Assembly (NCBI RefSeq): GCF_003334255.1
Contig: NZ_QOWU01000013.1
Length of the DNA stretch: 64,000 bases
Source of the DNA: Escherichia coli
GTDB lineage: Bacteria; Pseudomonadota; Gammaproteobacteria; Enterobacterales; Enterobacteriaceae
Strand: one strand, 5' to 3'
Shown: in pieces, positions 8,688 to 40,502 of the stretch
Position numbering within the stretch: position 1 is the first letter of the stretch
Layout: each line of letters begins with the position of its first letter
Made by a program: the position numbers and the translations under genes
The notes under the pieces: generated by a model
Told to the model about the DNA's origin: nothing
The model's input: the letters and a program-made list of their open reading frames with translations, nothing else
The model's database searches: none

Positions 8688-10277
8688 TTAATGCTCGCGG
8701 GTCTGGTGGAACTGAACGTCCGGATAACGTTCCTGTGCCAGGCGCAGGTTGACCATGCTGGTAGCGATGTAAGCGAGGTTATCGCCGCCATCAAGCGCCA
8801 GTTGGCTTTCGTTCTTACGCTTGAACTCTTCGAATTTCTTCGCGTCTGCACATTCTACCCAGCGGGCAGTGGCAACGTTGACTGACTCATACACTGCTTC
8901 AACGTTGTATTCGCTCTTCAGGCGCGCTACCACCACATCAAACTGCAGCACACCAACTGCACCAACGATCAGATCGTTGTTGGAGATTGGACGGAACACC
9001 TGCACCGCGCCCTCTTCGGAAAGCTGTACCAGCCCTTTGAGCAGCTGTTTTTGCTTCAGCGGATCTTTCAGGCGGATACGACGGAACAGTTCTGGTGCGA
9101 AGTTCGGAATACCGGTGAACTTCATCATCTCACCCTGGGTAAAGGTGTCGCCGATCTGAATGGTGCCGTGGTTGTGCAGGCCGAGGATATCGCCCGGATA
9201 CGCTTCTTCAACGTGCGAACGGTCACCCGCCATAAAGGTCAGCGCGTCGGAGATCACCACATCTTTCGCAGTGCGCACCTGGCGCAGTTTCATGCCTTTT
9301 TCATATTTACCGGACACCACACGCATAAACGCCACGCGGTCGCGGTGTTTCGGGTCCATGTTGGCCTGAATTTTAAATACGAAGCCGGTAAATTTATCTT
9401 CGCTCGCTTCTACGGTACGGGTATCAGTCTGACGCGGCATCGGCGCAGGTGCCCACTCCACCAGGCCATCCAACATATGATCGACGCCGAAGTTACCCAG
9501 CGCAGTACCGAAGAATACCGGAGTGATTTCGCCCGCAAGGAACAGCTCTTTGTCGAACTCGTTAGACGCGCCTTTCACCAGTTCCAGTTCGTCACGCAGC
9601 TGCTGTGCCAGATCTTCACCAACCGCAGCATCGAGATCCGGGTTATTCAGCCCTTTAACAATGCGGACTTCCTGAATGGTGTGGCCTTTACCGCTCTGAT
9701 AGAGATAGGTTTCGTCTTTATAAAGGTGGTAAACGCCTTTAAACAGCTTGCCGCAGCCAATCGGCCAGGTGATCGGCGCACAGCCGATTTTCAGCTCGTT
9801 CTCAACTTCATCGAGCAGCTCCATCGGGTCGCGGATATCACGGTCAAGTTTGTTCATAAAGGTGAGGATCGGCGTGTCGCGCAGACGGGTAACTTCCATC
9901 AGCTTACGGGTACGATCTTCAACACCTTTTGCGGCGTCGATAACCATCAGGCAGCAGTCCACCGCCGTCAGGGTACGATAGGTATCTTCCGAGAAGTCTT
10001 CGTGCCCCGGGGTGTCGAGCAGGTTAACCAGGCAATCGTGATACGGAAACTGCATCACAGACGTAGTAATGGAGATCCCACGCTGCTTTTCCATCTCCAT
10101 CCAGTCCGACTTAGCGTGCTGGTTGGAACCACGGCCTTTTACTGTACCGGCGGTCTGAATGGCCTGTCCGAACAGCAGCACCTTCTCGGTGATGGTAGTC
10201 TTACCGGCGTCCGGGTGAGAAATAATGGCAAAAGTGCGGCGCTTCGCCACCTCTTGCAAATAAGGAGACAACGTCAT
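8688..10277 (-). CDS. prfC: Peptide chain release factor 3 (GTPase)
   Basis: 529 aa from the ATG at 10277 ([29 protein letters not shown]1 motif). Confidence 0.95.
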
Positions 10278-10367
10278 AATTCTTTCTTCTTGAGTAAGCG
10301 GCATCGCGCCGCGCTTGTTGAAAACGAAAAATTGCGGCTATTTTACCCATCAACGGGGGGGAGGCAA

Positions 10368-24518: not shown

Positions 24519-24732
24519 GTACGGATTAAAAACAGCAAACTATTAGCGGGTGCACGGTTTTATCAAAAGATAAATACCGGGAAATTCCCGCTTACCTATG
24601 CTCACAATCAGTCGACTAAAAATGTTTTTGTGAGCGGTAGTAAAGTCCTAAAACTTTAACCTGCCGTTAATGTCAACCTTGCGTAATGCACAATTACGTA
24701 AACAATTAAAATTATAAATACAGGAGTCCGGC

Positions 24733-26094
24733 GTGGAAAAAGAAAATATCACCATCGATCCGCGTTCTTCATTTACTCCATCTTCGTCGGCAGATATTCC
24801 CGTGCCACCAGATGGATTAGTTCAACGCAGTACCCGAATTAAACGCATTCAAACCACCGCCATGTTGTTATTATTTTTTGCGGCGGTAATCAATTATCTC
24901 GACCGCAGTTCGCTGTCGGTAGCAAATTTAACGATTCGTGAAGAATTGGGATTAAGTGCCACCGAAATCGGCGCTTTGCTCTCCGTGTTTTCACTCGCTT
25001 ACGGGATTGCGCAACTTCCTTGCGGCCCACTATTGGATCGTAAAGGCCCACGCCTGATGCTGGGACTGGGGATGTTCTTCTGGTCACTGTTCCAGGCAAT
25101 GTCTGGCATGGTGCACAACTTTACGCAGTTCGTGTTGGTGCGTATCGGTATGGGGATTGGTGAAGCGCCGATGAACCCATGCGGTGTAAAAGTCATTAAC
25201 GACTGGTTCAACATCAAAGAGCGCGGACGCCCGATGGGCTTCTTCAACGCAGCTTCTACCATTGGCGTTGCCGTAAGCCCACCGATTCTGGCGGCGATGA
25301 TGCTGGTGATGGGCTGGCGCGGGATGTTTATTACCATTGGTGTACTGGGGATTTTTCTCGCCATCGGCTGGTATATGCTCTATCGCAACCGCGAGCACGT
25401 AGAACTGACTGCCGTTGAGCAAGCTTATCTCAATGCAGGTAGCGTCAATGCCCGCCGAGATCCGCTCAGTTTTGCCGAATGGCGCAGCCTGTTCCGTAAC
25501 CGTACAATGTGGGGAATGATGCTCGGATTCAGTGGCATCAACTACACTGCGTGGCTGTATCTGGCCTGGCTTCCTGGTTACCTGCAAACAGCCTATAACC
25601 TGGATTTAAAAAGCACAGGGTTGATGGCGGCTATCCCTTTCCTGTTTGGGGCTGCCGGGATGCTGGTCAACGGTTACGTTACCGACTGGCTGGTCAAAGG
25701 GGGAATGGCTCCGATTAAAAGCCGTAAGATCTGCATTATTGCCGGGATGTTCTGTTCTGCCGCCTTTACGCTGATAGTACCACAAGCGACAACATCCATG
25801 ACGGCGGTTCTGCTGATTGGCATGGCACTGTTCTGTATTCACTTTGCCGGAACATCCTGCTGGGGCTTGATCCACGTCGCAGTTGCTTCTCGCATGACTG
25901 CGTCGGTGGGCAGTATCCAGAACTTTGCCAGCTTCATCTGCGCCTCTTTTGCGCCGATCATTACTGGTTTTATTGTTGATACCACCCACTCATTCCGTCT
26001 GGCACTAATCATCTGCGGTTGCGTCACCGCAGCGGGGGCACTGGCGTACATCTTCCTGGTTCGTCAGCCGATCAACGACCCACGTAAAGATTAA
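24733..26094 (+). CDS. lgoT: MFS transporter (L-galactonate:H+ symporter)
   Basis: 453 aa; GTG start with CAGGAG ribosome-binding site; multiple transmembrane segments. Confidence 0.9.
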   Translation: MEKENITIDPRSSFTPSSSADIPVPPDGLVQRSTRIKRIQTTAMLLLFFAAVINYLDRSSLSVANLTIREELGLSATEIGALLSVFSLAYGIAQLPCGPLLDRKGPRLMLGLGMFFWSLFQAMSGMVHNFTQFVLVRIGMGIGEAPMNPCGVKVINDWFNIKERGRPMGFFNAASTIGVAVSPPILAAMMLVMGWRGMFITIGVLGIFLAIGWYMLYRNREHVELTAVEQAYLNAGSVNARRDPLSFAEWRSLFRNRTMWGMMLGFSGINYTAWLYLAWLPGYLQTAYNLDLKSTGLMAAIPFLFGAAGMLVNGYVTDWLVKGGMAPIKSRKICIIAGMFCSAAFTLIVPQATTSMTAVLLIGMALFCIHFAGTSCWGLIHVAVASRMTASVGSIQNFASFICASFAPIITGFIVDTTHSFRLALIICGCVTAAGALAYIFLVRQPINDPRKD

Positions 26095-26103
26095 TCTCCT
26101 TAT

Positions 26104-26137
26104 GCCCGATAACATTTTGCTTATCGGGCATTTTCAT
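26104..26137 (+). terminator. Rho-independent terminator after lgoT
   Basis: gcccgataa-cattttgc-ttatcgggc hairpin (9-bp stem) followed by ATTTTCAT. Confidence 0.6.
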
Positions 26138-26142
26138 GGCGA

Positions 26143-27798
26143 TTAAAATGTTTCCCAGTTCTCCTCGCTATCTGCCACGGCCATTTTACGCGGCGCAGCT
26201 GGCGTCACGGTTTTTACCACAGCCGATGTTTCACGCTGCTGTTGCTGAATCCGGAACACTGCCACTGCTTCGGTCAGGCGACTGGCCTGCTCTTCCAGCG
26301 CGGCGGCGGCAGCGGCAGACTCTTCCACCAGCGCGGCGTTCTGTTGAGTTACCCGGTCCATCTCAGCAACCGCTAAGCCAACCTGATCGATACCACGGCT
26401 CTGCTCATCAGAAGCAGAAGCAATTTCGCCCATAATGTCCGTCACGCGGGTCACGGCGCTGACAATCTCCGCCATTGTTTCCCCGGCGCTTTCGACCAGC
26501 GTAGAGCCAACATCCACTTTCCCCACCGAGTCTTCAATCAGGCTTTTAATTTCACGAGCCGCCTGGGCGCTGCGCTGGGCCAGATTACGCACTTCTCCCG
26601 CGACCACCGCAAAACCGCGCCCTTGCTCACCCGCACGCGCAGCCTCAACCGCCGCGTTCAAAGCCAGAATATTGGTCTGGAAGGCAATGCCGTCAATTAC
26701 GCTGATAATATCGGCGATTTTCTGCGAACTGGTGGAGATATCGCGCATAGTCTGCACCACGTTATCTACCACTTTACCGCCGCGTTGCGCCGTTTCAGAA
26801 GCACTTAACGCCAGATGGCTGGCCTGGCGCGCATTTTCGGCGTTCTGCTTCACCGTTGCGGTCAGTTGCTCCATGCTGGCTGCCGTCTCTTCCAGCGAAG
26901 CGGCCTGTTGCTCGGTGCGCGAAGAGAGATCGTTATTGCCGGTGGCGATTTCGCTGGCACCGCTATAGATGGCATTGGCCCCGTTGCGCACATCACCGAC
27001 GGTACGCATCAGCTCTCCCTGCATATGGCGCAAACTCTCTGCCAGTTGCCCCATCTCATTAGAGCCATCCACCTCAATCGGTTTCACCAGATCGCCGCCT
27101 GCAATATGACGAATGCTGTCAATCAGGCGATTCATTGGCGCTACCAGCGAGGCTTTAATACCGAACCAGACGGCGAAGATGACCGCCAGTACGACGATCA
27201 TCACGCCCACCAGAATCCACATCGCCTGGCTGTAGGAGGCATTGTTATCGCTGACGGCGATATCATGGAGCCGATCGTTTTGCTCCATGTAAGCCACATA
27301 CTGCTTCTCGAAACCGTCCTGATATCCCTGGGTCGGCTGATCAAAGAACTCGTTGATTTTGCCTGCACCTAACAGTTGGATCAGCTCCGCCAGCGCATTG
27401 TGATAAATATCGTAATTACGTTTGATCTCTGCCGCTGCGGCGGTGCTCTGACGCGGGTCACGCGGCAACGCTTCGTAATCCGCCCAGTTTTTTTCCGCCT
27501 GTTTCAGCGAAATACTGGCACTCTCCATCAGCTCAGCAACGGTTGAACCGCTACCAATATTATTCTGATCCATCATGTAGCGGATACCCGCGCGGTTGAG
27601 GGTGTTACGCGTCTGCAACAACGCGACCCAGCTGCCATTCAGCGTGGATTGCTGCTGGCGAATGGTTTGTAAAACAGTGAAATTTTCTTTGTCATTCTTT
27701 AAGGCATTAAAGAACAGACCGCCTGATGTCAGTTGTAAAAGGCCAAAAACGGCCAAAACCAGCAGTAAGCTGGTCACAATTTTGATACGTTTTAACAT
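26143..27798 (-). CDS. tsr: Methyl-accepting chemotaxis protein I (serine receptor)
   Basis: 551 aa; N-terminal TM-periplasmic-TM-HAMP organisation, C-terminal MCP signalling domain ending in the NWETF pentapeptide. Confidence 0.95.
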
Positions 27799-27828
27799 GG
27801 TTTCTCTTTCCTGTGGACCGATGCAAGA

Positions 27829-31564: not shown

Positions 31565-31597
31565 GGCCGCCATGTGGCGGCCTGAATTATTTTTTGT
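31565..31597 (+). terminator. Hairpin/terminator after yjiA (convergent with brnA)
   Basis: ggccgcc-atgt-ggcggcc hairpin followed by TGAATTATTTTTTG. Confidence 0.5.
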
Positions 31598-31889
31598 TCT
31601 GATCGCGCAGCATCGCTTCACGTAAAATTGCGTTCAGGCGAGTTTGATAGCCTTTACCAGGTCGCTTCAGCCATTCCATCACATCAGCATCAATACGCAC
31701 CGAAGCCTGGGTTTTCAATGGCCGATAAAACTTACCGCGTTCTGCGTTAGACCATTGCTCATCGCTGGAAGGTGGGATATCGCTGTAATCAATCTCTTCG
31801 TCGGATTTATTCGCCAGCGCCTTCAATTCGGCCTCATGCTGCACATCGAGTGTAGAGGAGGTCCCTCGTTTATGTTTAACCATGCTCAT
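31587..31889 (-). CDS. BrnA-like antitoxin (type II TA)
   Basis: About 100 aa from the ATG at 31889 (MSMVKHKRGTSSTLDVQHEAELKALANKSDEEIDYSDIPP...), GGAG ribosome-binding site 5 nt upstream; overlaps the toxin 3' end by 14 nt. Family assigned by resemblance, not alignment. Confidence 0.65.
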   Translation of the reverse strand: MSMVKHKRGTSSTLDVQHEAELKALANKSDEEIDYSDIPPSSDEQWSNAERGKFYRPLKTQASVRIDADVMEWLKRPGKGYQTRLNAILREAMLRDQNKK

Positions 31890-32163
31890 AGCGACTCCTC
31901 TCTTTACGATCTGCTTTTCGTGCACTGATGATTCGAATAATTTCATTTCCGCTTTCGAAACGGATGGTATGCGCAACCAGAATAACCACGATACCGTGAA
32001 CCACGCCGATAGTCTGCCAGCGATACTCACCGTTTTCTATGCGATCTTGCTGTGACAAATGTTGTGGATCATCAAACACCAACACCGCATCTTCAAAGCG
32101 GATGCCATGTTTCACCCGATTACTTTTGGCCTTGTTTGCATCCCATTCAAACTCCATTGGCAT
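31876..32163 (-). CDS. BrnT-like toxin (DUF497 ribonuclease family, type II TA)
   Basis: About 95 aa from the ATG at 32163 (MPMEFEWDANKAKSNRVKHGIRFEDAVLVFDDP...); toxin-first order with overlapping antitoxin, as in BrnT/BrnA modules. Confidence 0.65.
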   Translation of the reverse strand: MPMEFEWDANKAKSNRVKHGIRFEDAVLVFDDPQHLSQQDRIENGEYRWQTIGVVHGIVVILVAHTIRFESGNEIIRIISARKADRKERSRYEHG

Positions 32164-32359: not shown

Positions 32360-33526
32360 GTGAAAAACTATAAAGTTATTACCCCGCTTTTTCCTACCTA
32401 TGCACAGGTTAAAGCTATGATGAAAGCCGTCTCAGGCTATTCCCTGAAAGCGGTACGCAATATGATTACCGCCATTCACGAGCAAACCGGTACGCCGCAA
32501 AAACCCGTTGACTGGTCGGAACCCGACCTGTGGATCAGCGAGCGCTTAACGGGTGAAGATGCCGACATCGCCCGTCGTATTTGGGATACCGATAATCACA
32601 TCTTGAACCCGCGCCACAGCTACGGCTGCTACTTATTCCTCAACTATCCCCAGTTTGATCTGATGGAAAGCACACCAGATGATACCTGGCAGCCCACCTC
32701 GCACGGGCAAAAATTCCTGCAAGATGACGAAAAAACGCTGCGTTCACTGGACGATCAGGAAGGCATTCTGCAACTTCTTGAACTATTAGCTGGCCGCGAA
32801 ATGTCGCGCCGCGCCGATTTATTGCCGGAATGGCAGGCCTTTTTGCATCAGCATTCGAAATTCGCGTCTGCAAGTTCAGTGAAAAGCACGCTCTACTCCC
32901 GTCTCTATAACCTTATCGACCGTGACATGGTTAACCGTGAAGGCATGAGCTATCGCATCACCGATACCGGGCGCGCCTGACTTGGAAAAGCGTTACCTGC
33001 ACGAAAAAGCGATCCGCGTAAAGAGCTGTTGGAAGCGGTAAAACGCTATAACGAACAGCAAAAAGAGCTGCTGCGCGAACAAATCAGCACGATGAACCCG
33101 TACAAATTTGAACAACTGGTCGGTCAATTACTGGAAGCAATGGGCTACGAGCAGGTCGAAGTGACCAAAGCCTCTGGCGATAAAGGCGTGGACGTGATTG
33201 GTCAGGTGCAGGTCGGCATCACCACCATTACAGAAGTGGTGCAGGTCAAAAGAATGCAGAACACTATCACTCGCCCGTATATCGACCAGTTGCGCGGGGC
33301 GTTGCCTTACCACAAAGCCATTCGCGGTACGCTCATCACCACCGGGAAATTTGCGGCGAAATGTGCAGAAGCGGCGCTCTTTCCGGGTGCCGCGCCCATT
33401 ACGCTTATCGACGGCGATCGTTTACTGGAACTGTTAATCGAAAATAACGTCGGCATTCGCCGCAGCAATGCAGTGGAATTGCTGGATGTAGATTTGCAGT
33501 TGTTTGATGAGCTGGAGATGGATTAA
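32360..33526 (+). pseudogene. Mrr-family restriction endonuclease gene interrupted by an in-frame TGA
   Basis: One reading frame from the GTG at 32360 to 33526, broken only by TGA at 32978-32980; the C-terminal part (...GDKGVDVIGQVQ...VQVKRMQNTITRPYIDQL...TTGKF...) is a typical Mrr catalytic domain, and translation across the stop reads as a continuous linker. Confidence 0.65.
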
Positions 33527-33589: not shown

Positions 33590-35198
<1,609 letters not shown>

Positions 35199-35209
<11 letters not shown>

Positions 35210-36590
35210 TGGCTTCAAGTTACCTCTAGGATGGAATTGTAAAAAACTGGTTGATTGTACAAAGGAGGGAAATATCTCTTATGGTATTGTTCAACCAGGT
35301 CAGCATCAAGAAGATGGCATTGGTATTATTCGTGTAAATAATATACAAAATGGAAATATTTACATAGACGATGTTCTGAAGGTTTCTCATGAAATAGAAA
35401 GTAAATTTGCCAAAACTAGGTTAGAAGGAGGAGAAGTACTTTTAACACTAGTGGGTTCCACTGGAATTAGCGCCATTACAACTAAAGCACTACAGGGATG
35501 GAATGTTGCTCGTGCCGTAGCCGTAATTAAGCCATGCGATGAAATAAGTGCAGAGTGGATACATATTTGCCTCCAATCACCTTTTACAAAATATTTTTTG
35601 GATTCCAGAGCTAATACTACTGTTCAGAAAACTCTCAATCTCAAAGACGTGAAAGAAATTCCATTACCAATTCCTCCACATGAGGAAAGAGTAAGTCTTG
35701 AGAAAATTTACTTCAATTTTGAGAATAGAATAAACTTAAATATAAAAATTAATAAAATCCTAGAAGAAATGTCACAAAACCTGTTCAAATCCTGGTTTGT
35801 AGATTTTGATCCGGTGGTTGATAACGCTCTGGATGCAGGAAACCCAATTCCGGAAGCCCTGCAATCTCGCGCCGAATTGCGTCAAAAAGTACGTAATAGT
35901 GCAGATTTTAAACCGCTTCCGGCGGAAATCCGCTCGCTTTTCCCAAGTGAATTTGAAGAAACGGAGTTGGGTTGGATGCCAAAGGGATGGCAAATTAAAT
36001 CATTAGATCATATTGCTAATTTCCAGAATGGTTTGGCTTTACAAAAATTTAGGCCGAAGAATATGGAGGATGATTATTTACCTGTATTAAAAATAGCAGA
36101 TCTCCGAGCAGGACAAATAACTAATGACGAACGAGCAAGAACTGATATTTCTGATAGTTGTAAGGTGTATGACGGCGATATGATTTTCTCATGGTCGGGG
36201 ACTTTGATGATCGATATTTGGACTGGTGGGAATGCTGCATTAAATCAGCATTTATATAAGGTCACATCAAAAAAATACCCACAATCTTTTTATTTTATGT
36301 GGACAATACAGCATCTTTCAAGATTTCAACATATTGCAGAGGCAAAAGCGGTAACAATGGGGCACATCAAAAAAGGAGATTTAAGTAACTCTTTCTGTCT
36401 AATTCCTACTTCATCGTTGATTACTAAATATGATAATATCGTTGGAGGATATTTAGCGAAGATTAAAAATCAAAGATTGTTAAATAACCAAATGACCGCC
36501 CTACGCGACACCCTGCTCCCGAAACTCATCTCCGGCGAGCTATCCCTGGACGATATTCCGGATCTCAACACCGATACAGAAGCTGCATAA
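35199..36590 (+). CDS. hsdS: Type I restriction-modification specificity subunit HsdS
   Basis: 463 aa; ATG overlaps the hsdM stop by 11 nt (GGAGGGG ribosome-binding site); two AT-rich variable regions separated by GC-richer conserved central and C-terminal segments. Confidence 0.85.
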
Positions 36591-36684: not shown

Positions 36685-39600
36685 ATGAGTCTCTCTTTCA
36701 GTGAAGCAAAATTAGAACAAGCGATCATTGAACTGTTACAGGATCAGGGATATCAACACCTGATCGGCGATAATGTCCCACGTTCGACTCTCGATCAGGT
36801 CATTATCGAAGACGATCTCCGTCATTATTTAGCGGCACGCTACCAGCCTGATGGCATTACTGAAGAAGAGATTCAGCGACTGATCAAACAGTTCACCACG
36901 CTTCCGGCCTCCGATCTTTATGAAAGCAACAAAACATTTTGTCGCTGGCTGGCAAATGGTTTTCTGTTCAAACGCGACGATCGGCAAAAAAAAGATCTCT
37001 ATATTGAATTGCTCGACACCCGGCATCTACCTGCCGCACTGCGCCAGATATTTGACGCTGAAGATGTCCCGTTGCAACAGGCGGCGGAACTCCCGCCCTC
37101 CTATATTAATCCGCCGCTTAACCGGATTAAGATTGTTAACCAGCTTAAAATCTCCGGTAAAGATAATCAGACTCGTATTCCTGACGGCATTCTCTATATC
37201 AACGGTCTGCCACTGGTCGTCTTTGAATTTAAAAGCGCGGTGCGCGAGCAGGAAGCCAATATAGGCGATGCCTGGAAGCAGCTCTGCAAACGCTATCGCC
37301 GGGATATTCCGCAACTGTTTATCTACAACGCGCTCTGCATTATTAGCGATGGTGTAAATAACCGGATGGGCAACCTGTTTGCGCCCTATGAATACTTTTA
37401 CTCATGGCGCAAAGTCACCGGTAATGAAAACCGTGAACAGGACGGAATTCCATCATTGCACTCAATGATTCAGGGACTGTTTCATCCGGTACGTCTGTTG
37501 GATGTGATTAAAAACTTTATCTGCTTCCCGGATAAAGCCAAGCACGAAGTAAAAATTTGCTGCCGATATCCGCAGTACTATGCCGCCCGCAAACTCTATT
37601 ACAGCATCAAGCAAGCGCGTAAACCTTTCGGTAGCGGTAAAGGCGGTACCTACTTTGGCGCAACGGGCTGCGGAAAAAGCTACACCATGCAATTTTTAAC
37701 CCGCCTGTTAATGAAAAGCGTGGAGTTTGCCAGCCCGACCATTGTTTTGATCACCGACCGTACCGATCTGGACGATCAGCTTTCTGCGCAAATGTGCAAC
37801 GCCAAAAATTACATTGGCGATGACACCATCGTTCCCGTTACCAGCCGTGAAGATTTGCGTAATCAACTGGCGGGACGCAATAGTGGCGGTGTATTCCTGA
37901 CAACGATCCATAAATTCACCGAAGACACCGAACTCCTTTCTGAACGCAGCAATATCATTTGCATCTCGGACGAAGCACATCGCAGTCAGGTTAACCTCGA
38001 CCAGAAAGTCATCGTCGATAAAGAAAGCGGAAAAGTGCGCAAAACTTATGGCTTTGCGAAATACCTGCACGATTCACTGCCAAACGCCACCTATGTTGGC
38101 TTTACCGGAACTCCGATTGACGCAACACTCGATGTCTTCGGTGAGGTGATCGACAGTTACACCATGACCGAATCCGTTCAGGATGAAATCACTGTACGCA
38201 TCGTGTACGAAGGCCGTGCGGCTAAAGTGATCCTGGACTCCAGCAAACTGGAAGAAGTCGAAAAGTATTACGAAGAGTGCGCAAACGCAGGCACCAATGA
38301 GTGGCAAATCGACGAAAGCAAAAAAGCCACCGCAACCATGAATGCGGTACTGGGTGATGAAGATCGGTTAAAAGCCCTCGCGGAAGATTTTGCCAAACAT
38401 TATGAAAAACGCGTAGCCGAAGGTTCCACCGTAAAAGGCAAAGCCATGTTTGTTTGTGCCAGCCGTGAAATTGCCTGGGATTTCTACCGCCAGCTTAAAG
38501 TTATTCGCCCTGCCTGGTTTGAAGTGAAGCAAGCCCCCGATGGCGTCGTCCTGACGGAACAGGAGCAGAAAGAGTTACCGCCTTCTGAAATGGTGAAGAT
38601 GGTCATGACGCGCGGTAAAGATGACGACGAGGCGCTTTATGATTTACTGGGCACAAAAGAATATCGCAAAGAGCTGGATAAGCAGTTCAAAAACGCTAAA
38701 TCGAATTTCAAAATTGCCATTGTTGTTGATATGTGGCTGACCGGTTTTGATGTTCCTGAACTGGATACCATCTATATTGATAAGCCCTTACAAAAACATA
38801 ACCTTATCCAGACTATTTCTCGCGTTAACCGTAAACTGGAAGGCAAAAGCAAAGGGTTAGTAGTGGACTACATCGGCATTAAGAGTCAGATGAACCAGGC
38901 ACTGGCAATGTATTCCCGCATTGATGCCACCAACTTTGAAGATATTCAGCAATCGGTAATAGAAGTTAAAAACCATCTCGATTTGTTGGGGCAAGTATTT
39001 TATGAATTCGACAGTCGGGATTATTTTAGTGGTGAGCCACAAGCGCAATTATCCTGCCTCAACCGCGCGGCGGAATTTGTTCTGCGCACTCAGAAAGTTG
39101 AACGTCGTTTTATGGGACTGGTTAAACGCATGAAAGCCGCCTACGACGTCTGCTGCGGCAGTGAAGCACTATCACAGACAGAACGTGATCATATTCACTA
39201 TTATCTTGCTGTTCGTTCAATTGTTTTCAAACTGACGAAAGGTGACGCACCGGATGTCACCCAGATGAATGCACGCGTTCGTGAAATGATTGCAGAAGCG
39301 CTAAAAGCTGATGGCGTAGAAGAAATTTATTTTCTTGGCGATAAAAAAGCGGAATCCATCGATATTTTTGACGAAGATTATCTGGCGCGAATTAACAAGA
39401 TCAAACTTCCGGCAACGAAGATCCAGTTATTACAAAAATTACTGGAAAAAGCGATCAGCGACTTCAAGAAAGTGAACCAGTTGCAAGGGATTAACTTCAC
39501 CCGCCGCTTCCAGGCGATTATAGATCGTTATAATGAGCGGCGAGAAGATGATGTACTCAACGGTGAAGAATTCGATACATTCAGTCAGGAAATGACCGAT

Positions 39601-39948
39601 ATTATCTATGATATTAAAACCGAAATGGGCACATGGGCCGATTTAGGTATTGATATTGAAGAAAAAGCGTTTTTCGACATTCTTGCTCATATGCGCGATA
39701 AATATCAGTTCACCTATGACGATGAAAAAATGCTGTCACTGGCAAAAGAGATGAAAAGCGTGGTTGACAACACATCGAAATATCCTGACTGGAGTAAACG
39801 CGATGATATTAAAGCGAAACTGAAAGTTGAACTTATTCTGCTTCTACACAAGCATAAGTTCCCGCCAGTAGCAAATGATGATGTTTATATGGGTGTGCTG
39901 GCACAGGCAGAGAATTTTAAAGAACATCATATGAGTGCTTTAAATTAA
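36685..39948 (+). CDS. hsdR: Type I restriction endonuclease subunit HsdR (helicase-nuclease)
   Basis: About 1087 aa from the ATG at 36685 (GGAG ribosome-binding site; ORF track starts at TTG 36673); Walker A GATGCGKS and DEAH box ISDEAHRSQ. Confidence 0.9.
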   Translation: MSLSFSEAKLEQAIIELLQDQGYQHLIGDNVPRSTLDQVIIEDDLRHYLAARYQPDGITEEEIQRLIKQFTTLPASDLYESNKTFCRWLANGFLFKRDDRQKKDLYIELLDTRHLPAALRQIFDAEDVPLQQAAELPPSYINPPLNRIKIVNQLKISGKDNQTRIPDGILYINGLPLVVFEFKSAVREQEANIGDAWKQLCKRYRRDIPQLFIYNALCIISDGVNNRMGNLFAPYEYFYSWRKVTGNENREQDGIPSLHSMIQGLFHPVRLLDVIKNFICFPDKAKHEVKICCRYPQYYAARKLYYSIKQARKPFGSGKGGTYFGATGCGKSYTMQFLTRLLMKSVEFASPTIVLITDRTDLDDQLSAQMCNAKNYIGDDTIVPVTSREDLRNQLAGRNSGGVFLTTIHKFTEDTELLSERSNIICISDEAHRSQVNLDQKVIVDKESGKVRKTYGFAKYLHDSLPNATYVGFTGTPIDATLDVFGEVIDSYTMTESVQDEITVRIVYEGRAAKVILDSSKLEEVEKYYEECANAGTNEWQIDESKKATATMNAVLGDEDRLKALAEDFAKHYEKRVAEGSTVKGKAMFVCASREIAWDFYRQLKVIRPAWFEVKQAPDGVVLTEQEQKELPPSEMVKMVMTRGKDDDEALYDLLGTKEYRKELDKQFKNAKSNFKIAIVVDMWLTGFDVPELDTIYIDKPLQKHNLIQTISRVNRKLEGKSKGLVVDYIGIKSQMNQALAMYSRIDATNFEDIQQSVIEVKNHLDLLGQVFYEFDSRDYFSGEPQAQLSCLNRAAEFVLRTQKVERRFMGLVKRMKAAYDVCCGSEALSQTERDHIHYYLAVRSIVFKLTKGDAPDVTQMNARVREMIAEALKADGVEEIYFLGDKKAESIDIFDEDYLARINKIKLPATKIQLLQKLLEKAISDFKKVNQLQGINFTRRFQAIIDRYNERREDDVLNGEEFDTFSQEMTDIIYDIKTEMGTWADLGIDIEEKAFFDILAHMRDKYQFTYDDEKMLSLAKEMKSVVDNTSKYPDWSKRDDIKAKLKVELILLLHKHKFPPVANDDVYMGVLAQAENFKEHHMSALN

Positions 39949-40070
39949 TTATGAAGGCCGGATACACTTTGTTATCCGGCCATTCTGAATTAACGTTAAT
40001 TTCTCTTCCAGATCTTTCCAGTAACGCTTTTATTATTTTCTATTTTTAGCTGGACTTCCCCCCATATTTA

Positions 40071-40086: not shown

Positions 40087-40109
40087 GTATTTAGCGCGGT
40101 GCGGATGTG

Positions 40110-40190
40110 CGCCAACACACCCGCACCGCTCATCACAATCACTATTTATGGAGAATAGTAATCATGACTGACACGCATTCTATTGCACAA
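40110..40190 (-). ncRNA. symR: Candidate SymR antisense sRNA (coordinates approximate)
   Basis: Placed by established knowledge that a roughly 77-nt antisense RNA overlaps the symE 5' UTR and start; an inverted repeat gcggtgcgg...ccgcaccgc (40095-40129) lies at the predicted 3' end. Not independently detectable from sequence alone. Confidence 0.3.
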
Positions 40191-40502
40191 CCGTTCGAAC
40201 CAGAAGTCTCTCCTGCAAATAACCGTCAATTAACCGTGAGCTATGCGAGCCGCTACCCGGATTACAGCCGTATTCCCGCCATCACCCTGAAAGGTCAGTG
40301 GCTGGAAGCCGCCGGTTTTGCCACCGGCACTGTGGTAGATGTCAAAGTGATGGAAGGCTGTATTGTCCTCACCGCCCAACCACCCGCCGCCGAAGAGGGC
40401 GAACTGATGCAGTCGCTGCGCCAGGTGTGCAAACTGTCGGCGCGTAAACAAAGGCAGGTGCAGGATTTTATTGGGGTGATTAGTAGCAAAACGCCACGCT
40501 AA
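40164..40502 (+). CDS. symE: SOS-induced toxin-like protein SymE
   Basis: 112 aa from the ATG at 40164 ([52 protein letters not shown]...); LexA box upstream. Confidence 0.85.

Follow-up and report, generated by a model that had tools for sequence, protein, structure and literature searches.

The window analyzed here, a 64,000-nucleotide stretch of Escherichia coli DNA, covers the E. coli immigration control region (ICR), a hypervariable defense island in which type IA, IB, or ID systems are found together with Mrr, McrBC, or GmrSD genes (PMC12707154; PMC3874165). Genes follow the order lgoR–lgoT–tsr–btsT–yjiX–yjiA, brnA/brnT, an Mrr-like gene, hsdM, hsdS, hsdR, symE, yjiS, and yjiR; the equivalent slot in K-12 holds mrr–hsdRMS–symE–mcrBC. 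The features on which the analysis draws are listed by window position, with the evidence for each.

31587–32163, minus strand: brnT (31876–32163) and brnA (31587–31889), a toxin–antitoxin pair between yjiA and the pseudogene (annotation transferred from ATCC 11775; ORF list)
32360–33526, plus strand: gene of 388 codons read as an Mrr-family (PD-QxK) pseudogene, putative type IV restriction endonuclease (RefSeq; PADLOC PDC-S02; Pfam Mrr_cat)
32360–32980, plus strand: frame still translated, 206 codons plus TGA, covering the N-terminal helical domain and nearly all of the winged helix (translation; AlphaFold2 domain limits)
32765–32992, plus strand: coding region of a predicted winged helix-turn-helix, residues 136–211 (AlphaFold2 model)
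32978–32980, plus strand: premature opal stop at codon 207, TGG to TGA within CCTGG to CCTGA (base-by-base allele comparison)
32995, plus strand: substitution, A here and G in all five compared alleles (allele comparison)
33086–33436, plus strand: coding region of the Mrr_cat nuclease domain, residues 243–359, untranslated after the stop and otherwise intact (Pfam; D278, Q295, and K297 present)
33590–35209, plus strand: hsdM, intact, identical to WP_001029740.1 (MTase_I, E 3e-194)
35199–36590, plus strand: hsdS, intact, identical to WP_000535334.1 (RefSeq; profile match)
36685–39948, plus strand: hsdR, intact, identical to WP_000058888.1 (REase_I, 1718 bits, residues 1–1083)

The Mrr-like gene appears in the window as two open reading frames. 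A GTG at 32360 opens a frame of 206 codons that ends at the TGA at 32978–32980, and a second frame, running from a TTG at 33029 to a TAA at 33524–33526, is in the identical phase. Translated as one piece, 32360–33526 yields 388 codons and a terminal stop, with a single internal stop at codon 207; read across that stop, the junction is ...ITDTGRA*LGKALPARKSDPRKELL.... This translation confirms what the sequence-only reading had seen, two co-framed ORFs separated by one TGA. The substitution at 32995 falls downstream of the stop and, read in the old frame, leaves the amino acid unchanged (TTG to TTA).

RefSeq already treats the locus as a pseudogene. In the type strain ATCC 11775, positions 9161–10327 of the retrieved locus, which correspond exactly to window 32360–33526, are annotated as a “restriction endonuclease” pseudogene with an “internal stop,” and the same pseudogene and internal-stop annotation is present in E110019 and HL15. 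A literature search on this specific pseudogene returned nothing relevant.

Downstream of the pseudogene, hsdM, hsdS, and hsdR are intact ORFs, each identical to a nonpseudogene RefSeq protein and each matched over its full length by the corresponding profile. The sequence-only reading had called this type I system active, and the three intact genes suggest that it may be. Its HsdM is only distantly related to the M subunits of EcoKI (type IA) and EcoR124 (type IC). HsdS is a mosaic with two target-recognition domains (TRDs), the second of which is identical to that of a type I system at a second locus in O80:H26 EC-107. A search of the literature for an ATCC 11775 methylome gave nothing relevant.

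Several smaller features of the region were recorded. The brnT/brnA pair is divergent from the pseudogene and is absent at the K-12 position. A SymR antitoxin RNA (Rfam RF01809, 95 bits) at 40093–40169 on the minus strand overlaps the start of symE (40164–40502, plus strand), and the pair sits directly downstream of hsdR, as in K-12. Codon 445 of btsT (window 29509) is GGG (Gly) in the window and GAG (Glu) in ATCC 11775, and the C-run in the hsdR–symE spacer, at about 40057–40063, has seven bases in the window and six in ATCC 11775. In E110019, the equivalent of about 24700–27800 carries lgoT (frameshift) and tsr (internal stop) as annotated pseudogenes; both are intact in ATCC 11775 and are intact ORFs in the window.

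Intact alleles, the ancestral codon, and the encoded protein

The gene is present in 881 of 5,426 complete E. coli genomes, always on the chromosome and in one copy per genome. Identity to the window copy is at least 99% in 37 of these 881 copies and 95–99% in the other 844. Six copies without this TGA, including those of CREC-544, NC101, an ST131 strain, TUM10008, and 82.0311, are uninterrupted 1167-nt genes of 388 codons, and codon 207 is TGG (Trp) in all five non-TGA copies checked. Aligned to the window without gaps, the CREC-544, NC101, ST131, and TUM10008 copies show 95.8–97.4% nucleotide identity, and all four have TGG at 32978–32980, where ATCC 11775 and the window have TGA in the same ungapped comparison. 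Because intact alleles carry TGG where the window has TGA, the lesion is best described as a G-to-A transition at 32980 that converted Trp207 to an opal codon, leaving close intact relatives a single base away at this position. Of the two original codons suggested earlier, TGG and CGA, the four aligned alleles thus bear out TGG.

The window differs from the intact alleles overwhelmingly by synonymous substitutions. For the C-terminal half, the ratio of synonymous to nonsynonymous changes ranges from 10:0 to 20:0; for the N-terminal half, it ranges from 14:3 to 17:7. Where intact, the gene therefore evolves under purifying selection.

The region lost behind the stop is a recognizable nuclease. 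Pfam Mrr_cat (PF04471) matches residues 243–359 of the intact allele with an E-value of 3.8e-29 over model positions 2–115 of 115, all downstream of codon 207, and the PD-QxK signature residues D278, Q295, and K297 are kept in the downstream frame of the window. Pfam winged-helix models match residues 151–208 only weakly. When the intact NC101 allele (96.8% nucleotide identity to the window) was used as the PADLOC query, residues 1–386 aligned to positions 1–383 of the 390-position PDC-S02 profile (PDLC04796; E 2.5e-207), and the catalytic half also matched the PADLOC mREase_IV models for type IV methyl-directed restriction endonucleases. NCBIfam returned no family for the whole protein or for either half, and a sequence search of the PDB with the full protein returned no match.

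An AlphaFold2 model (mean pLDDT 83) places a confidently predicted helical domain at residues 1–135, a winged helix at 136–211, a long helix at 219–244, and the nuclease fold at 247–361; the linker at 212–218 is of low confidence. The model thus has the N-terminal winged-helix module fused to a nuclease that is typical of the Mrr family. Codon 207 lies within the final helix of the modeled winged-helix domain, from which the stop would remove only the last five residues. The helical domain (32360–32764) has pLDDT values above 90 and many invariant residues, for example W52, W58, and N83-P84-R85; residues 1–135 have no counterpart in Pfam, and the structural comparison gave no clear match.

The nearest well-known counterpart is EcoKMrr of K-12 (mrr, b4351). 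Both proteins have a C-terminal Mrr_cat PD-QxK domain (31% identity over 173 residues; VQVKR pairs with VQAKR in the alignment) and an N-terminal DNA-binding module of the winged-helix type, and both genes occupy the same chromosomal slot of the ICR, next to yjiA and to a type I hsd operon. The similarity is, however, confined to the catalytic domain (residues 216–383 against 137–304); with no detectable similarity elsewhere and lengths of 388 and 304 aa, we do not regard the two as orthologues. The window family also has an additional predicted helical domain of about 135 aa at its N terminus, its hsdM–S–R genes lie on one strand whereas K-12 has a divergent hsdR–M–S arrangement, and the window copy, unlike EcoKMrr, is stopped at codon 207.

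A closer match is the PADLOC family PDC-S02, to which the intact allele corresponds from end to end. PDC-S02 is a computational candidate for phage defense, and the window copy, with its frame interrupted, could not make the full-length protein. In the literature the family appears in survey mentions only, and no experimental test of the candidate was found. Dependence on modified DNA would be expected of the Mrr-like nuclease from its family membership. Its reader module would differ from those of the modification-dependent endonucleases MspJI and AspBHI, consisting in the model of a winged helix and a helical domain.

Spread of the TGA allele and recurrent lesions

The stop is widely shared. 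Among complete genomes, 34 contain an exact match to the 61-base stretch around the TGA; their sources are humans, pigs, poultry, cattle, water, and culture collections. The 206-aa product is found without any change on at least 1,000 public contigs. The best match of the region is ATCC 11775 (NZ_CP033092.2; 99.9% identity over 1501 bases). Over about 20 kb, ATCC 11775, HL15, and E110019 are 99.94–99.98% identical to the window, and for E110019 the identity is 99.97% over 32.6 kb. Among themselves, TGA carriers are at least 99.8% identical. The TGA found in these independent assemblies is thus best regarded as an inherited allele, belonging to one lineage or to one transferred block. Its carriers would make up a widespread E. 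coli lineage, including ATCC 11775 and S88, that has kept the type I system and is without the PDC-S02 candidate type IV defense.

Other lesions of the same gene occur in E. coli. An ST131-type allele (Logan ERR4036538; L013:3619–3621, equivalent to window 32978–32980) has TAG at codon 207 as its sole difference from the intact ST131 copy, and codon 207 was thus hit twice independently, as TGA in the window lineage and as TAG in the ST131-type allele. At least four further independent truncating lesions were found: frameshifts with products of 244 aa and 226 aa, a truncated form of 256 aa, and a fusion of 314 aa. Some of these could be assembly errors. Within the TGA lineage, B-1109 has a deletion that runs from just after the TGA into hsdR, an IS1 sits in the hsdS of C10, and in EC21Z-063 the match to the window hsdS covers just its first 57%. 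Repeated decay of this kind is the usual turnover of a defense island.

Nonsense alleles of Trp codons, among them the amber hotspots at Dcm sites in lacI, are classical. As in those alleles, a single transition in TGG creates the stop here, and codon 207 lies within a CCTGG Dcm site. The window change is nonetheless not the hotspot change: CCTGG to CCTGA alters the G opposite the outer C, a base that is unmethylated, and this rules out a Dcm-hotspot origin for the TGA. The ST131-type TAG allele (CCTGG to CCTAG), by contrast, is the change expected from deamination of 5-methylcytosine at the Dcm site.

Consequences of the stop and competing explanations

The intact protein would comprise, from N to C terminus, the helical domain, the winged helix, a flexible linker, the long helix, and the Mrr_cat PD-QxK nuclease. 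On the window allele, ribosomes would halt after residue 206 and release a fragment with both N-terminal domains and no nuclease. Nuclease activity would be lost, or reduced at most to what occasional readthrough of UGA provides. The frames of the allele thus point to loss of protein function, although the 206-aa fragment might retain an independent function in binding DNA.

Restart or recoding would offer a way around the stop, and neither finds a convincing signal. The in-frame candidates for reinitiation, TTG at 33029 and ATG at 33092 and 33140, have at best weak Shine–Dalgarno-like sequences, none of them convincing. No SECIS-like hairpin was found in the 60 nt after the TGA, which fold worse than shuffled controls (z = +1.24); that folding result, together with the Trp, Tyr, or His that relatives have at this position, rules out selenocysteine insertion or programmed recoding. 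With restart signals at best weak and no SECIS-like structure, the nuclease domain is most likely not made.

We consider it very probable that one 388-aa gene for an Mrr-family nuclease was turned into a pseudogene by the Trp207 nonsense mutation, most likely as a neutral or mildly beneficial loss of one dispensable defense gene that has spread with its lineage. The window copy would then be a pseudogene of the Mrr family rather than a working member. The significance of the finding beyond correct annotation is slight.

An adaptive reading, in which the stop is a dial-down of the nuclease rather than neutral decay, seems unlikely to us. Under it, the two hits at codon 207 and the other truncating lesions might mean that lineages repeatedly silence the nuclease after gaining an incompatible methyltransferase somewhere in the genome, and a trace of readthrough product, a free 206-aa winged-helix fragment, or polarity on hsdMSR could alter restriction. 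Polarity of the stop on hsdMSR is possible because the promoter and terminator scan found no plus-strand terminator and no consensus promoter in the interval between the pseudogene and hsdM.

A narrower adaptive explanation goes back to the sequence-only reading: the Mrr-like nuclease would have been lost because it turned on DNA carrying the methylation of the neighboring type I system, or that of its specific hsdS. Three observations lend it some color. Some foreign methyltransferases make K-12 Mrr genotoxic (PMC3152355), the gene has been cut short independently several times in E. coli, and the 31 complete genomes that have the window's full-length hsdS allele are all among the 34 TGA carriers. 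This last association is uninformative, because the TGA genomes examined share the whole near-identical block, at least 20–32 kb long. Tested against the TRDs separately, the explanation does poorly: 82.0311 has the same TRD1 (100% identity) and TUM10008 a TRD2 that is about 90–100% identical, with the Mrr-like gene and hsdM intact in both strains. Each methylated half-site context would thus coexist with an intact nuclease.

The wider distribution argues in the same direction. Four of the five intact copies are, as read from annotation, immediately followed by hsdM and hsdS genes that are intact and of the same kind; distant homologues occur within or beside type I operons, so that coexistence is the conserved state; and CREC-544 has lost most of hsdM–hsdR while its Mrr-like gene is intact. 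The published antagonism, moreover, set K-12 Mrr against a type III Mod, and it was Mod that was lost, not Mrr (PMC3152355). Self-toxicity as the cause of the loss is accordingly not supported, and we judge it quite improbable.

The stop may also have attenuated the gene instead of killing it, with misreading by tRNA-Trp giving a low level of wild-type enzyme, or with the N-terminal fragment and a reinitiated nuclease fragment forming a split enzyme. UGA followed by C is the leakiest stop context in E. coli, and UGA is usually misread by tRNA-Trp, which would insert the ancestral Trp. The window has exactly this TGA-C context and this ancestral residue, and a trace of exactly wild-type full-length protein is plausible. 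Downstream of the TGA, the next 546 nt are free of stops and frameshifts and the catalytic residues are intact; that this domain has gathered no further disabling mutations would suit a recent event as well as residual constraint. The allele is young, its carriers being so nearly identical, and this explains the missing lesions; in B-1109 the remnant has been deleted further, as expected of a dispensable pseudogene. Since the stop also has no recoding structure or credible restart signal, and no relative is naturally split or stopped at position 207, we hold an attenuated allele to be very unlikely. The natural TGG/TGA pair would provide a convenient isogenic contrast for what the Mrr-like candidate restricts.

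Against the preferred single-gene reading stands the proposal of two true adjoining genes, one for a DNA-binding protein and one for a stand-alone Mrr_cat nuclease. Some automatic annotation does split the pieces, as in STEC_EH250, where a 206-aa “hypothetical protein” is followed by a 165-aa “restriction endonuclease family protein.” The family speaks against such a division. We surveyed the best 120 database matches, which include sequences from Citrobacter, Salmonella, Mixta, Kluyvera, Lelliottia, Yokenella, Enterobacter, Serratia, Buttiauxella, Halomonadaceae, and Thiocystis; with nearly identical E. coli fragments set aside, these are single proteins with Mrr_cat. In a 54-sequence family alignment that spans Enterobacterales, Halomonadaceae, and Thiocystis and reaches down to about 51% identity, all members are fused and measure 383–408 aa, and D274, D278, Q295, and K297 are invariant (54 of 54). 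Residue 207 is Trp in 37 of the 54, Tyr in 16, and His in 1.

Homologues that end naturally at position 207, with the catalytic domain encoded separately, were sought among these aligned relatives and none was found; short forms occur only as truncations in E. coli, near-identical in sequence and produced by frameshifts or stops. A natural split gene is ruled out on this alignment, and with the two pieces in frame and parted by one codon a single base from Trp, two genes can be regarded as exceedingly improbable. The earlier view of a single gene with a point nonsense mutation is upheld by the uninterrupted intact alleles and by the fused homologues throughout the family, and both ORFs belong merged under one pseudogene label, as in RefSeq. 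That the stop arose through faulty sequencing or assembly of the window, with TGG as the true codon, was left standing by the sequence-only reading as a general possibility, and nothing more speaks for it. The chance is vanishingly small: the identical TGA is present in 34 complete genomes, independent of one another and drawn from different laboratories and hosts, and the exact shortened product is on at least 1,000 contigs. Such an error is now excluded.

Distant homologues of the gene are likewise found in defense islands. The Modicisalibacter copy has BREX genes as neighbors (pglY, pglZ, brxD, and a helicase), the Thiocystis homologue lies between hsdR and hsdM, and the Serratia fonticola homologue is convergent with hsdMSR.
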